Below are positions 20,110 through 32,398 of a DNA stretch of 64,000 nucleotides, one piece after another. Position 1 is the first letter of the stretch. Each line of letters opens with the position of its first letter. The notes under the pieces were generated by a model. It was not told where the DNA came from. It worked only from the letters and a program-made list of their open reading frames with translations, and searched no databases. The translations under genes were made by a program, and so were the position numbers. The DNA is from a virus (taxonomy: Duplodnaviria; Caudoviricetes), in the IMG/VR virus record IMGVR_UViG_2892966740_000006, positions 1 to 64,000 of that record. One strand, 5' to 3'.

Positions 20110-20270
20110 AAACCGAGTGGGGATTGCCGCGCGTCACATCGATGGCGTTAAAACCCCGTTAAAATCGCCATGGTAGCCTTACCAGTGCCATGAGCATGGC
20201 GTTAGGCGATAGATGCCAAATCAAACGCACAACGGCCGTTTGTGCGCTTAACCATTTCTTTGGATCAACG

Positions 20271-20597
20271 ATGAGCACTCAAACAGAAAACCTCATTCAC
20301 CAACTCTCGTGTCTCCCGGTCTGTGATGCCATTAGCCAACATCCTGCTGTGATGCTGGACCTGTCGAATGGAGCCATCATCAGAAGCCCGGCTAATCTTG
20401 CGGCGGACGACGAATGCGAGTTCTTTGAAGTTCAATGGCCGGGCGGAGAACCACAGCAAGTTTTGGCCTGCAAGATCGTAGACAAGCTACTTCTCGCGGC
20501 TATCCATCACTGGAAAGACACGGGAGAAATGAAGGGGGATATCGCGATGCTCTTTCAGGATCAGCGGGAGCACCTGCAGATCAAGTTTGGGTTCTGA
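20271..20597 (+). CDS. moron: small acidic hypothetical protein between G and I
   Basis: 108-aa ORF filling the G-I gap on the opposite strand. Confidence 0.6.
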   Translation: MSTQTENLIHQLSCLPVCDAISQHPAVMLDLSNGAIIRSPANLAADDECEFFEVQWPGGEPQQVLACKIVDKLLLAAIHHWKDTGEMKGDIAMLFQDQREHLQIKFGF

Positions 20598-20601
20598 TTG
20601 G

Positions 20602-21150
20602 TTACTCATCAAAGTATCTCCCCAAGATGGCCAGCAGCTCCGCTTCAGCGACGGGTGCCAGCTGGCCATTCTCATCCACCGGCAGATAGGCCCGCGCCGG
20701 GATATACACGCCAAGGCCTCGGCCAGCCCGGCCACCCAACTGCTGGATGGCCGCATAGGCATCCAGTCCATTACCCCATGGGCCGAAGGCCAGATGATCC
20801 GGCCCCGCTTCAAAGCTGAAGGCGTACTGGCGCAGATTGTTGGTATGGCCCTGCAGGATTTTCTTGTTGGCCAGCACGGTCTGGCCGCGCTTCGATAGCG
20901 AGCCATCTTTCTTGAAGTTCTTCTTGCCGCCGTGCCGGATATACGCCGCCAGTGTCGTCGGGGCGTTCGGCTCCCAAGGCTGGCCGTGCCAGTCTTTCTG
21001 TTCGGCAAAGCGCTGGTCGGTCTCTGCCTTGGCCCACTCGGCAAAGTCCAGCAGTGCCGGGCGCAGGTTGTGGGCTTGCGCCAACAGTTTATCCAGTGCC
21101 CGGCCAACACTGTCATTGACGACTTTGATTTCGAAGCTGTTGTCACTCAT
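20602..21150 (-). CDS. Mu G-like virion morphogenesis protein
   Basis: RF..Q.DW.G..W and YAAIQQLGG.AGR....IPARAYL motifs. Confidence 0.88.
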   Translation of the reverse strand: MSDNSFEIKVVNDSVGRALDKLLAQAHNLRPALLDFAEWAKAETDQRFAEQKDWHGQPWEPNAPTTLAAYIRHGGKKNFKKDGSLSKRGQTVLANKKILQGHTNNLRQYAFSFEAGPDHLAFGPWGNGLDAYAAIQQLGGRAGRGLGVYIPARAYLPVDENGQLAPVAEAELLAILGRYFDE

Positions 21151-21153
21151 AAT
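21125..21153 (+). promoter_or_regulatory. sigma70-like promoter firing into the F-G intergenic RNA
   Basis: TTGATT-17bp-CATAAT; predicted +1 at about 21159-21160. Confidence 0.55.
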
Positions 21154-21157
21154 GAAT

Positions 21158-21253
21158 ATAGGCCGTGCAGAAGTACGTGAAATATCGCATTACGTACTGC
21201 AACCCCGAAAGGGCGTGCACACGCAGGGGGTGGCGTCCTGCCTGCACGGCTAT
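21158..21253 (+). ncRNA. four-way-junction structured RNA downstream of MuF
   Basis: Closing stem GCCGTGCAG/CTGCACGGC encloses three hairpins, one with a GAAA tetraloop. Confidence 0.6.
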
Positions 21254-21258
21254 CCTCC

Positions 21259-22549
21259 TCATATGATCCGCCGATACAGGGCCGGGTTATTCAAGTCCCG
21301 TAAATCCACATAGCCCAATGTGGTCAATGTATTTGTCTGCATGGGTATACGCTTCCCGTTCCGATCCTTGTCTTTCACGCGGTAATTTGCATTGATCACG
21401 GCTTTTACGTACCGCTTCTCATCCTGGGCTTTCCATACCGCTAGATAGATCGGCTCAAGCTGGTCATTGCTTACCTGCTGATAAACCCGTTCAGGCTCCC
21501 ACATGCCAATAATTGTCTGCATGGCATCGTCCAGGGGTAATCCGCTTGTCTGCCTTGGCCCCCGTATCCCGCAAAGCATGTTTCACCTCGCTGTCATCGA
21601 CCGACACCACCGCCGTGGCCAATGACTCGCCCGTGGCCTGCTCGATCTTGTCGACCAGTTGCGGCGACAGCCCGCCAATATGGATACGCTGCTTGGTTGG
21701 CCGGTAGCCCGCCGGGTCCGGGTAGATCTGCTGGACCAGCGGTTGCCAGCGTTCCTGGACGATCTTGTCCAGTGCCTGAATGTTGTCGACCGCGCTCTGA
21801 ATAGCCGCAGCCCCGATCCGGGCCGACGTTGTCGCCGCCTTGTCCAGCAGCAGGCGGCCAAGGTTCGCTTGTCCTGGGGCGTAGTCCCATCCGTAGTCAA
21901 TGCCATCCGGCACGGACACAGGGCCATCTGGCGTGTCCTGCTCGACGTACTGAATGGCCGGGGCGGTATCGGGGCCGTTCTTGCCGTACTTTTCGCGCAG
22001 TTCTTTCTCGGATACCCCATAGACCGTGCACTGACATCCCCAGCCGTTTGGCGGGTAATGGGTTTGCCACCACGGATCATCGGCCCGCAGGATCAGGCCG
22101 TTCCGGGCTAAATGCTGCGGCCGTGGATGCAGGACTGAATCGGAATGGCGATAGCGCCAGTAAGGCCGCGCTTTCAGCATGTCCGGGTCGGTCAGCTGCT
22201 GGTAACGGCCAGCGGCATAGCTGGTCTGCAGATTGGTCTGGTAGATGACGCGGGTTCGCCAGTTTCGACCACCCTTATAGTCCCAGCCGTGCCGGGCGAC
22301 GATGTCGTCAAACCCGGCCCGGAAATCTTCCAGCGTCGACTCACCGGCAATGGCCTTATCGACTTCCTGCCGCAGATCCTCCAGCAGATCGCTGGCCATA
22401 GCCCCGGCCACGACAAACGAACGGTCGTGCTGGGCCTTCATGATGTCGGTCCATGTCTGGGTGGGCAGATTCAGCTTCTGCCGGAAGTAGTCCATCTGAA
22501 CTGGCCACGGCTGCTTGAACACCGCACCCAGCAACGCATCATCGGCCAT
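21259..22549 (-). CDS. MuF head morphogenesis protein with a C-terminal extension (putative nuclease domain)
   Basis: IYQTNLQTSYAAGRY and WQTHYPPNGWGCQC; an extra C near 21535 splits KRIT-LDDAMQ. Confidence 0.88.
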
Positions 22550-24085
22550 GGCGGACCTCATAACGGCCAGCCAACTCAGCCAGACTAAAAGCGGTGTTCA
22601 TTACCCGCTGCAGCTCGGTGGTAGGCAAGTTACCAAACCCATTGATCAACCACGCCCGGAACGACGCCAGATCCGGGGCATCGGCCAGTGCTTGGCGAAT
22701 GACCTGAAGAATGGCTTCCATCGGGTCGGTAGTCTCGTTGGTAAGCTGTTCAATTAGCGGTGCCATCGGGTCAGCCGGTCCCGGCTGCAACGCATTAGTC
22801 GCCCGATAGTGATTCATCGCCGCTTGGGTCTGAGGGGCTTAAGACATCAACCGGCACCATCAGAGCTTCGCTTTGGGCCGTTCCAGACCGAAGCGCTCAT
22901 AGGTGGACTCCTGACCGACCGGCAGGCACGCACCAGCTTATCCACCACGCCAGCCAATGCGGTCAGGTCTTCCGGTTTGTTAATCCGTAGGCGGATGGCC
23001 GGGTACTTTTGCTGCGGCCCCAGATTGAGGTCCACCACCGGCTTGACGTAGTCGCGGGCCAGCGTGGCTACCAGCTGTTTGACGTCGGCGTCCAGAATAT
23101 CTTCGCGTACCTCGTTATGGACCTTGCCCAAGGCGTAGGCGCCACCGCCACTGCTCCCGCCGGTGTTGGTGGCAAGCGTCTGGCCAAGGACGATCTTGCT
23201 GGTCTGCTTGTCGAAATATTCCGTCAGGCGGGCATAGATATCGACCGAGGCGGTTTTATTGCTAAGCGTCGACAAAGTCGATTTCCATGTTCTTCGGGAT
23301 GGCGGCGGCCGCATCCGTGCCGAGGCTACGCAGGGCCGTCAGCAGAGTTTCAATGTCCTGCGGCGTGGCTGAGACATCGTACTTACCGACACGCAGCGGC
23401 TGGCCATACGCCTCGGCAAACGTGACCCAATCCTTGATCGCGTAGTTGCTGAACAGAAAAGCCCAGCACGCCATGCGGGCCAGACCGCCGCGGATCAGCA
23501 CGCCCGACTTGGCCTTGACCTTGTGGGTGATGAATTTATAGGGTGCCAGCGGATCGCCGTAGATATTGGTATCCGAGCGCAGATATAAGGTTTCAGGGTC
23601 TTCGCGGCGGGTTTGCAGCCAGTACGGTTGCAGATAGGACAAGCCACGCGGCATCCACTGCCGCGCACTGGTTTCCCAGTCGATCTCATGCACGCTGAAG
23701 CCCTTGCCGATGGCGTCCAGAATATCGAACAGGTTTTCACTGATCGGGGCCAGCGCTTCTTCCACCAGTGCGGCGGCCTGCTGACTGGCGGCATCATCGC
23801 CAGCTTACCAACGTACAGCTCCAAACCGACTAGGGCACGCTTGCGGGTCGACAGCTCGGAGCCGTAGTGCAGGTACTTCTCTTCCATGTCCTCGGCCAGC
23901 CGCAAGTAGGCGCTGGCATCACCGTTCACCGCCTGACGCAGCATGTGCCCCAGCAATTCCGGGTCAAGGCCATGGCTGGCAGAGGCAATGATCTGCCGTA
24001 CCCCGGTGGTGGTCGGGGTGGCGATGGAGGTTTTTAACAGGCCCATGTTAATCGGCTGGCCATTATGGTCAACGAGTTGCGCCAT
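22539..24085 (-). CDS. portal protein (Mu gp29/DUF935), fragmented
   Basis: LAEDMEEK, FAEAYGQPLRVGKY, SKIVLGQTL and ALGKVHNEVR motifs. Confidence 0.9.
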
Positions 24086-24658: not shown

Positions 24659-26293
24659 CTACCAGGTGCCGCGCCCGAATCGGGCTGATGCCGCAAACTG
24701 TCCTCGGCCGATGCCCTTGTAGCCTTTGGTCGCCAGCGGCGCGGCATCAATCACGCGGGCGGCATACCAGGCCAAGGCCACCGCAACGGCCACGTCACCG
24801 TGGCGCTTGCCCTTGTCTTCGCCGGTGGTCCGGGTGTCCGGTATGCGCGGTACGCCATTAATGATTTGCACTGCCCGCAGGTCGGCCAGCACGTCCTTGT
24901 CTTTCGGCAGGCCATCCAGATCGCCGTCTTCCAGCGCGGCTTTGACCGGCGGCATGTGTTCGCGGTACCAGCTCTCCGACAGCATCACCTGATGGATACG
25001 ATCCGCCCCGTATTTCTGCATGGCTACCTCGGCCAGAAACTGGCCGTTGCCCCGCGCATCGAAGGCACCACCGGCAAAGCCCGGCAGGTTATCTAGCAGA
25101 TGGAAGGTGACTTGCTCTTGCTGGCGGAAGGGGACGTTGCGCATTTCCAGAATGAACGGCACGCGCCGCACCAGGTTCTGCAGTTCGATCAGCGGCACAT
25201 GGACCGACAAGTCACCGCTCCGGGCAAAATCCTCCCCGTCAAAGCTGCGGACATCCTTGGGGAGTTTGTCCAGCTCCGGCTGGAGCACTTCATCAATCCA
25301 GTCCTGGCAATGGCGCTCCCGCACATAGTCAGGCTCCAGCTCAAAGCCTTGGGGGCACTCGTAGCGCAGCACCGGCGTATCGGCCGACATGCGCTTTTCG
25401 ATCAGCAGGCTGGATAGCCAGTTGCCGCCGCTGTTTTTGGGGATACAGCCGTACTCCTCGTCGGCCGACTCGGGGTTCGGGGCATTCTTGTAGAGGTCAT
25501 CGCGCCATTTCTTCTCGGCTTCGACCGACCAGGTCTGACCGGTGACATAACAGATGCGCTTATAGAGACCGTCGGCAATGGCGTCATCCAGCGTGATGCG
25601 ATGCACGCTGTAATCCTTCTTGCTTAAGCACGCGCTTCCTGAATCAGCTCGTTGAAGATGTTTTCGGCCCCGTTATGGGTACTGATCAGCCTGACCTTGT
25701 TGCCCCACATGGTGAGGGCTAATGCCGCCTTGAGCAGTTCTGCGAGTGAATCGTGGAAAGCCGCTTCATCAATCACCACATCGCCCTGCAGACCGCGCAG
25801 GTTGGAGGGCCGACTGGATAACGCCTGAATCTTGAAGCCCGACTTGGGGAAGCGAATCATGTAGGCGAGGATTTCTTCCTGCTTACCTTCATCCCAGAAT
25901 GTCTGTTCATACACATCGGCCCGCGCCAGCTCATTGAAGGCTTTGGCAAACAACGCAGCGGCGGCGATGTACTCCAGCGCCATTTCCTTTTTGCTGCCGA
26001 CATAGAAGGTATTGCAACCGTGGCGCTTGCGCGGTTTTGCCGCTTTGACCACGTTGCGTGTAAGCTTCCGCCCACGTCAGACCGGTACGGCGTGACTTCT
26101 CCGCGATCATGATCTGGGACTCGTCCTCAAACCAACGCTGCTGATACGGCAGTAAAACCGGTTGATTCTCCGGGATGGCGTCAGCCACGTCCTGCGGCAC
26201 CACCACCCCGGCCAGTTCCATCTCTTCGGCCAGGTTAATCTTGCGCGGGCCACCAAGGGCTTTTAACGGGGGATGTTCCTGTTCGGCCATCAC
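24659..26293 (-). CDS. terminase large subunit (Mu gp28-like), three fragments
   Basis: LLPYQQRW, EKSRRTGLTWAEA, VVIDEAAFH, DFARSGDLS and RHGD motifs. Confidence 0.92.
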
Positions 26294-32324: not shown

Positions 32325-32339
32325 TGCTGTCCTTTGGCT

Positions 32340-32394
32340 GCTCATCAGTACCGGACCACCACGCCCGGCAGACCACCCTTGCGGGCGGTTTCGC
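32340..32394 (-). ncRNA. hammerhead ribozyme (type II topology)
   Basis: GC-GAAA-CCGCCC(GCAA)GGGTGG-TC^-TGCCGG(loop)CCGGTA-CTGATGA-GC. Confidence 0.85.
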
Positions 32395-32398
32395 TGGG

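Follow-up and report, generated by a model that had tools for sequence, protein, structure and literature searches.

The 108-nt gap between the late genes F and G of a Mu-like prophage holds an RNA element of about 90 nt that folds as a four-way junction with the connectivity of a tRNA. The prophage is contained in a 64,000-nt stretch of DNA (hereafter, the window) from a virus of the class Caudoviricetes, positions 1 to 64,000 of the IMG/VR record IMGVR_UViG_2892966740_000006, and the element occupies the + strand at 21162-21250; with F and G both on the minus strand, it is antisense to the two genes. Comparison of F loci across phages gives good support, at the level of sequence, to the existence of this RNA gene and to its coupling with those forms of F that carry a histidine-bearing MuF-C domain, an RNase-like domain also known as PBECR. 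We propose, with a probability of about 0.5, that the two constitute a two-part module in which the RNA would bind the MuF-C/PBECR domain as a tRNA-like decoy or antidote. The RNA is probably a partner of this domain, and its role as the antidote is perhaps the form that the partnership takes. A previous reading of the window (the original prediction) had already combined a nuclease-like MuF tail with a promoter-driven cloverleaf RNA in place of an immunity gene. A dedicated RNA partner would provide a handle on the role of the C-terminal RNase-like domain of Mu F, termed poorly characterized in the part of its 2017 description used here (PMC5512222), and on the question of how a virion RNase can be carried harmlessly to the phage's own production.

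Structure and strand of the F-G RNA

The closing stem of the element (P1), as read from the sequence, pairs GCCGTGCAG (21162-21170) with CTGCACGGC (21242-21250) on the + strand. It encloses, in this order, arm 1, in which AGTACGTGA (21172-21180) pairs with TTACGTACT (21190-21198) around a loop at 21181-21189; a variable arm 2 (21199-21218), with CCC-GAAA-GGG set inside GCA/TGC; a 4-nt joiner, ACAC (21219-21222); and arm 3, in which GCAGGG (21223-21228) pairs with TCCTGC (21236-21241) around a conserved 7-nt loop, GGUGGCG (21229-21235). The + strand folds at -46.5 kcal/mol (z -3.85), a value equalled by none of 200 shuffled sequences, and a covariance model built for the RNA matches the window at 21158-21255 with 115 bits. 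Compensatory changes are found in 22 of the 29 pairs among 26 distinct sequences in an alignment fitted to the covariance model, and the observed covariation is reached by none of 500 shuffles; in a plain MAFFT alignment of 13 sequences, 8 of the 29 pairs covary. When the 3' partners are slid out of register, pairing drops from 93.6% to 28-44%. Given this covariation, the structure exceeds chance expectation, and the stems and hairpins of the junction lie where the original prediction had drawn them. Fold z-scores of the gaps of other phages are mostly unremarkable (-2.9 to +1.2, with -0.3 and -0.7 for the gap of a Pasteurella phage); such scores are poor discriminators, given that a confirmed member of the RNA family, L321, attains only -1.4.

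Canonical pairs account for 95.8% on the strand antisense to F and G and for 86.8% on the other strand, and the antisense strand is the better paired one in all 18 distinct sequences tested, the reason being conserved G-U pairs. Here too the earlier reading, which had favored the + strand on account of G-U pairs in the window, agrees with the comparative data, with the orientation of F and G corrected to the minus strand and the RNA, hence, recognized as antisense. Between the phages of Chromobacteriaceae and Pseudomonas phage B3, the stems have been rewritten, and the loop motifs GAAAU..CGC and GUGGCGU are kept together with the short joiner. Arm 2 differs in length between copies through hairpin insertions, and the sequences of loops 1 and 3 make a contact of CGC with GCG possible.

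The minus strand of the gap also folds well (-43.3 kcal/mol, z -2.82), in agreement with an alternative in which the conserved element acts within the sense-strand late mRNA, bringing a GGAGG near the ATG of G, coupling G to F through a 34-aa open reading frame (ORF), or serving as a processing site. The ORF in question (GGAGG, then GTG; 21143..21247, minus strand) crosses the RNA region and stops 3 nt past the ATG of G, which, from our reading of the sequence, has no Shine-Dalgarno sequence of its own. A Shine-Dalgarno sequence and start, along with a stop at the G start, are kept in 9 of the 13 Chromobacteriaceae-type phage copies despite differences in the inner frame, and this arrangement is absent in L003, L014, L149 and L138. 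Nevertheless, on the sense strand the conserved G-U pairs turn into A-C mismatches and all 18 sequences pair worse (21 of 29 pairs in B3), and four copies of the RNA located outside any F/G context keep promoter-like hexamers, so that we consider a sense-strand element improbable. The ORF is probably merely a translational bridge from F to G. Its presence runs counter to the view that the gap is free of ORFs, although the peptide is not conserved in three-frame translations. A protein-coding reading of the gap was likewise examined and rejected: open frames vary by copy, some of them with stops, and B3ORF34 shares no frame with the 34-aa ORF.

In its helix order, the RNA is a tRNA-type cloverleaf (P1, 1 nt, arm 1, arm 2, ACAC, arm 3 of 6 bp with a 7-nt loop, P1), and it departs from tRNA in arm 2, the tip of which is GAAA or is occupied by variable insertions, and in the arm 3 loop, GGUGGCG, which is not a canonical T-loop. 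In the window, ARAGORN reported a tRNA-Thr at 46-121 only and did not recognize the F-G RNA, and it found nothing in L012, L020 and L167. Searches of the window for the element with Rfam 15, including the tRNA and C4 models, produced nothing at gathering thresholds; relaxing the cutoff to E <= 10 over 20900-21500 yielded only Afu_514 and ftsZ-DE at chance level, and 13 related loci produced nothing relevant at E <= 1.

The histidine motif of F and the presence of the RNA

The C-terminal domain of F in the window contains an H-x-L-R-D motif (EVKHALRD, encoded at 21564..21587 on the minus strand, with the His codon at 21576-21578), and the histidine is conserved without exception in alignments of 22 and of 28 relatives. 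In the part of Iyer et al. (2017, J Bacteriol, PMC5512222) used here, the MuF-C domain is identified as PBECR, a His in the N-terminal helix is given as the usual active-site residue, and gp30 of phage Mu is regarded as an inactive version with orthologues that are probably active. The state of this motif was compared with the F-G gap in Mu F loci of viral contigs; of 493 relatives, the best 80 were taken and clustered by their last 150 aa, and 37 of these loci form the MuF-C cluster. Every one of the 20 loci with HxLR in this cluster has an F-G gap of 97-128 nt, and these gaps hold the window-type RNA in 18 cases (57-108 bits) and another cloverleaf, with a canonical T-arm, in the remaining 2. 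Of the 17 loci without HxLR, one contains a 586-nt insert, and in the other 16 the gap measures -4 to 32 nt. Short F genes that lack the domain (n = 10) are separated from G by 2-7 nt in all 8 measurable cases. An F-G interval of 586 nt was recorded for the His-less MuF-C loci L271 and L341.

The same association is apparent within a narrow group of phages. B3, in which the RNA is present, keeps LHVLRD at the motif, and its close relatives JD18, JBD67 and PM105 have LV(S/P)LVKA at this position, a 4-nt overlap of F with G, and no RNA. F and G overlap by 4 nt in phage Mu as well. A naive regular expression flagged Mu gp30 as His-positive by virtue of an off-position HEIR, an assignment that was rejected after manual alignment placed RLLVMNGKS, with no His, at the motif. 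A second sample, drawn from metagenomes, comprised 80 loci, many of which duplicate the first set; all 6 new loci with the strict motif have gaps of 116-274 nt that hold the T-arm RNA class described below, and the 3 His-less loci comprise one of the 586-nt type and two in which the gap measures 2 and -1 nt. Short and His-less F genes are thus both without the RNA-bearing gap, and the RNA tracks the His motif, as would be expected of the pairing put forward in the original prediction.

A tree was also computed from the N-terminal portion of F after removal of the columns that carry the trait. On this tree, there are at least 5 changes of the His state, and in all 4 of the 4 independent pairs the gap changes along with it. 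At the motif position, the His-less lineages are unlike one another, which suggests separate decay events rather than one spreading allele. A comparable pattern involves a different segment in cluster 3, where six loci with an AH..HPE segment have gaps of 120-139 nt and two loci without the segment have gaps of -4 and 8 nt.

This co-occurrence would also fit an RNA that is a cofactor, guide or cargo of F, bound by PBECR and packaged or processed with the protein, so as to aim the RNase or to enter the next host. RNA binding by the MuF-C domain was proposed by Iyer et al. (2017; part of PMC5512222), and F is annotated as "minor head protein and DNA pilot" in phage records. On the other hand, His-less versions that bind RNA should need the RNA too, yet are without it, and the orphan chromosomal copies described below are hard to account for. 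We therefore regard such a role as rather unlikely.

The last ~190 aa of F recur at the C-terminus of MuF proteins of 415-460 aa, as solo proteins of 170-212 aa, and in one portal-MuF fusion. Among the relatives retrieved with phmmer, sub-threshold Pfam matches link 7 of 22 to MuF_C and 3 of 22 to PBECR3, with PBECR2 also represented. The AlphaFold2 (AF2) model of the domain (pLDDT 92.6) consists of a helix at 81-88 followed by four long strands, and the motif His lies within this helix, which opens the BECR-like core. With VIA-align, BECR-type toxins, namely RelE/ParE-family toxin-antitoxin (TA) toxins, colicin D and CdiA-CT, fill 28 of the 29 top rows, at low Z of 5.0-3.2; the names in the top rows include BrnT, RelE, YoeB, HigB, colicin D and CdiA-CT. 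A sequence search of PDB returned antibody matches only, which were dismissed as chance-level. The model and the sub-threshold matches weakly point to a BECR, RNase-like fold, in line with the nuclease-like character ascribed to this tail in the original prediction. What was taken there for an extension of about 190 aa past the MuF core is, however, the ordinary, already described MuF-C domain of Mu gp30-type proteins and not an unusual toxin tip.

The late genes of the window are on the minus strand in the order portal (in pieces), F, G. The Mu F (gp30-type) head protein gene (21259..22561, minus strand), composed of the MuF core (PF04233) and the C-terminal MuF-C/PBECR-like domain, is represented by a 356-aa ORF (21491..22561) and an overlapping 106-aa ORF in another frame (21259..21579). 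Phage_Mu_F (PF04233) matches the window ORF with 52.4 bits (cut-off 29.6; 1.1e-13) and an intact F relative, P0001 (genome G005; Aquitalea magnusonii according to the protein's source names), with 58 bits. P0001 has 431 aa and is colinear with both pieces in the window, which are separated by one frameshift near 21534, and a related public contig is without one base at 21534. The segments EVKHALRD and WEPERVY, previously quoted as parts of one protein, accordingly belong to different ORFs on the two sides of the frameshift, the former to the 356-aa ORF and WEPERVY onwards to the 106-aa ORF. The portal-like (22847-24085, minus strand) and terminase-like (24659-26293, minus strand) genes are each split into 2-3 overlapping ORFs in different frames. 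The source genome, of 3.35 Mb, is 80.6% complete with 6.7% contamination. Given the split portal and terminase and the completeness of 80.6%, the frameshift in F most likely reflects either an error of the assembly or a recent lesion; the split ORFs, together with completeness and contamination, indicate an indel-rich assembly, and frame breaks in the window are not to be taken as biology.

The gene that follows F is G (virion morphogenesis / tail completion, PF05069; 20602..21150, minus strand; Phage_tail_S, 4.4e-13). No immunity protein gene was found after F, where the only ORF in the gap is the non-conserved one of 34 aa, in keeping with the original prediction. Just after G, on the opposite strand, a 135-aa ORF (20190-20597, +) has no Pfam match. 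The same Mu-like prophage also carries a type II hammerhead ribozyme at 32332-32396 of the window (minus strand; 72.3 bits, gathering threshold 37).

Distribution, promoter-like sites and further RNA classes

The genome from which the window derives contains 7 copies of the RNA, 3 in F-G gaps of Mu-like prophages and 4 elsewhere (in G000, L004 at C3:3103769, L005 at C1:131761, L006 at C1:5756 and L007 at C3:2408055). Three of the non-phage copies are next to a PhzF-like gene on duplicated segments of ~1.07 kb that are 94-99% identical, and one is located elsewhere, next to a gene for a DUF6602 protein. Contig C1 also has a pair of segments with 99% identity over 3 kb. The homology between phage and non-phage copies consists of the RNA and ~40 nt upstream. 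Among 67 other genomes of Chromobacteriaceae, a family assignment that follows the source names (Aquitalea, Chromobacterium and Pseudogulbenkiania, for example), 6 carry the RNA, always in F-G gaps, and an order-level scan of 151 genomes detected it only in G000, the window's own, and G010.

Beyond these bacteria, a covariance model built from 13 copies identified the RNA in Pseudomonas phage B3, with 49.8 bits, in a 123-nt F-G gap and antisense to F and G. Compared by blastn against 50,697 phage records, the window RNA had no match, and the B3 RNA matched the two B3 records only. With a second model and a pattern scan of viral contigs, the family grew to include B3-like phages and others at a greater distance, in which F is 52-70% identical to that of B3; one weak match, also antisense between F and G, comes from a locus whose F shares only ~31% identity with that of B3. 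The first pattern scan had been too loose, with 3 of its 115 stretches (L033, L037 and L122) real according to the covariance model.

Multiple copies in one genome and a sporadic occurrence (in the order, 2 of 151 genomes, the window's own included, and, by blastn, only B3 among the 50,697 phage records) are features that would be shared by a small mobile or repeated element, devoid of function and inserted between F and G by chance. Terminal repeats and a transposase are absent, though, the slot and orientation recur where F is ~31-40% identical, compensatory changes are present in all four helices, and selfish repeats do not keep loops while stems change. Taken together, these observations make a functionless insertion very improbable.

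A sigma-70-like site, TTGATT-17-CATAAT (21125..21153, +), is the sole promoter-like site in 20800-21700, a region in which 0.6 would be expected by chance. Its -10 hexamer includes the complement of the G start codon, and the predicted transcription start, at ~21160-21161, falls at the base of P1; both the site within the start of G and the start point at the foot of the stem are exactly those of the original prediction. Hexamers for -35 (TTGATT or TTGAGT) and -10 ((C/G)ATAAT) stand at matching positions in each of the 7 copies of the genome, the 4 outside phages among them, with spacers that differ between phage and non-phage copies, and most relatives have a weaker -35, TGGATT. A hairpin is present ~45 nt downstream of the non-phage copies and scores better as a terminator for the opposite strand. 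Antisense -10 boxes resembling TATACT or TATAAT were found in gap-bearing loci of several C-terminal classes of F; 27 of 29 end within 3-30 nt of the G start, and the mean promoter score over the 29 gap-bearing loci is 8.4 antisense, compared with 6.6 sense and 6.3 shuffled.

A promoter located inside the start of G and an RNA that spans the whole intergenic leader are likewise compatible with a cis-antisense regulator or exclusion RNA. Such an RNA, made in the lysogen, would pair with the F-G junction of the late mRNA, to which it is fully complementary, and block the production of G from leaky or superinfecting transcripts, with the chromosomal copies acting as anti-phage decoys. In window-type phages, the only Shine-Dalgarno sequence for G (GGAGG after the F stop) lies in the target of the RNA, and antisense control typically involves folded sense and antisense partners whose loops are complementary. 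There is also a precedent in STnc6030, an antisense RNA encoded by prophage BTP1 of Salmonella (from the part of PMC7067206 used here). This scheme leaves unexplained, however, the restriction of the RNA to His-keeping F, the unrelated T-arm tRNA-like RNAs in the same slot, and the retention of the loops and joiner as far as B3 despite the rewritten stems; moreover, G of B3 has its own Shine-Dalgarno sequence outside the RNA. A second complementary site in the window is not above chance, targets complementary to the RNA loops elsewhere in the window numbering 11 against 8.1 expected and 3 against 4.9 expected. Regulation in cis thus appears unlikely, even if it is the foremost competitor of the proposed RNA-domain module.

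The T-arm RNAs comprise 10 sequences (L365, L380, L388, L406, L415, L377, L267, L292, L353 and L167), all in F-G gaps and on the antisense strand. They consist of an acceptor-like stem, a UUCC/GGAA arm, a variable arm, and a T-arm, CCGG-UUCGA(A/G)U-CCGG, and end at the F stop codon; 9 of the 16 predicted pairs covary. Rfam (L267, L292 and L167 scanned) and ARAGORN (L167) did not recognize this class. Pasteurella phage AFS-2018a belongs to it, and its RNA is preceded by TTGATT-17-TATAGT. A third, distantly related class occupies the F-G gaps of L342, L349, L354, L376, L396 and L377 (21-31 bits in three of them) and goes with a "QxRH" subtype of the F domain, ..REGLIRGxKQxRH... In L377, the third class and the T-arm class are arranged in tandem, each after a TATACT. 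Gaps of 90-200 nt with antisense -10-like boxes and putative closing stems were also observed in other C-terminal classes of F, namely in L333 and L334 (gaps of 176 and 206 nt), L270-L311 (cluster 1), and L272-L276 and L304 (cluster 3), and two of these have two tandem copies of one unit in the gap.

The proposed module and its relation to known systems

In the proposed module, a small-RNA gene on the strand opposite the late genes, with its own sigma-70-type promoter, would give rise to a compact RNA of ~90 nt that binds the MuF-C/PBECR domain of F, encoded immediately upstream. Binding would keep the RNase silent in the virion-producing cell and in lysogens. The RNA would thereby fill the place that a protein immunity gene has in MuF polymorphic-toxin loci, and the four chromosomal copies outside prophages would be orphan antidotes. 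The structure of the RNA, its strand, its several genomic copies with their promoter-like hexamers and its co-occurrence with the His motif are shown by the sequence comparison, and the fold class of the domain is shown weakly. Transcription of the RNA, RNase activity of the domain, binding and neutralization are steps that we infer, and neutralization appears to be the most economical mechanism in view of the immunity-gene position, the co-loss of RNA and histidine, the orphan copies, and the tRNA shape, tRNA being cut by many BECR enzymes (Iyer et al. 2017, from the part of PMC5512222 used here). More tentatively, and with greater reserve than for the module itself, the idea can be widened to the Mu-like phages that keep a competent BECR RNase on F. 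These would carry an RNA immunity gene, an antisense tRNA mimic with its own promoter that comes in at least 2-3 structural classes and, both in the virion-producing cell and in lysogens, plugs the injected tRNase; orphans could be captured by bacteria as a defense against incoming F, and loss of the RNA would be followed by decay of the RNase, and vice versa.

Several observations weigh against the module. The sign test on the 4 independent pairs gives p = 0.125, the pairs being too few for significance, and the end of F adjoins the gap, so that one recombination or deletion can change both and linkage contributes to the co-loss, perhaps partly. Cluster 1 sorts uncleanly, with L291 and L294 keeping a His at gaps of 8 and 21 nt. 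As for the domain, P0001 matches Phage_Mu_F only, neither the full protein nor its C-terminal 191 aa matching a PBECR/MuF_C model (PF18819, PF18812, PF18810) even at E 10; Foldseek returned nothing at E <= 0.001, and the model resembles BECR structures only weakly (Z no higher than 5). The neighbors of the orphan copies (DUF6602, PhzF, unnamed) include no RNase-like gene. With respect to expression, no terminator-like site was found downstream of the RNA in the window, that is, in the phage context, and the sole signal from an RNA library is one 154-nt contig (X7, 21137-21290), the first base of which precedes the predicted start by 24 nt and which could derive from DNA or late mRNA; X1, X4 and X5, three other sequencing runs, probably represent DNA and also cover other parts, and the uncovered parts are uninformative. 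Finally, strand-specific RNA-seq of a lysogen of the B3-like phage Fc02 detected forward-strand transcripts only (in the part of PMC9936078 used here), with the state of the Fc02 gap not established.

Should the module hold, a tRNA-shaped, single-copy antisense RNA would join the short list of RNA antidotes for protein toxins, and the RNAs of the F-G gap would represent new structured classes absent from Rfam. The idea is directly testable, given that B3, which has the RNA, is cultivable and its close relatives JD18, JBD67 and PM105 are without it.

A literature search retrieved no report of an RNA partner or a tRNA-like RNA for MuF or PBECR, in line with the original prediction, which knew of no description of the pairing. 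A functional parallel to the proposed antidote is found in type III TA systems (ToxIN), in which a structured RNA neutralizes an endoribonuclease by direct binding and the partners are lost together. Type III antitoxins consist of tandem repeats that precede the toxin gene on its own strand and are excised by the toxin, whereas the RNA described here is a single cloverleaf, downstream and antisense, with its own promoter, and its putative partner is a domain of a virion protein. With tRNA, it shares the order of helices and joiners, including the 4-nt joiner and the 7-nt arm 3 loop, but the window class has neither an anticodon loop nor a T-loop sequence, and its closing stem is of 9 bp and its first arm of 8 bp. 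Small prophage RNAs with their own promoters are familiar from c4 of P1/P7 and CI of P4. Together with STnc6030 of BTP1 (from the part of PMC7067206 used here), these resemble the F-G RNA as prophage small RNAs with own promoters, some of them antisense in late genes. In contrast to such immunity and antisense RNAs, the F-G RNA has no Rfam C4 match (E <= 10) and no second target site above chance, and its link to the His motif of F has no counterpart among them. The protein side of the module corresponds to MuF-C/PBECR as described by Iyer et al. (2017, PMC5512222), with a BECR-fold, RNase-like C-terminus fused to MuF and a His in the N-terminal helix; a linked RNA gene and the F-G gap are unmentioned in the part of that description used here, and the present comparison adds that His-bearing versions come with a structured RNA and His-less versions without it. 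MuF polymorphic toxins (Jamet et al. 2017, BMC Biol, from the part of PMC5576092 used here) are similar in having a variable C-terminal effector with a protective partner directly downstream; in the loci analyzed here, there is no immunity ORF, and that position is taken instead by an RNA gene on the opposite strand, behind a conserved MuF-C domain rather than a swapped tip.

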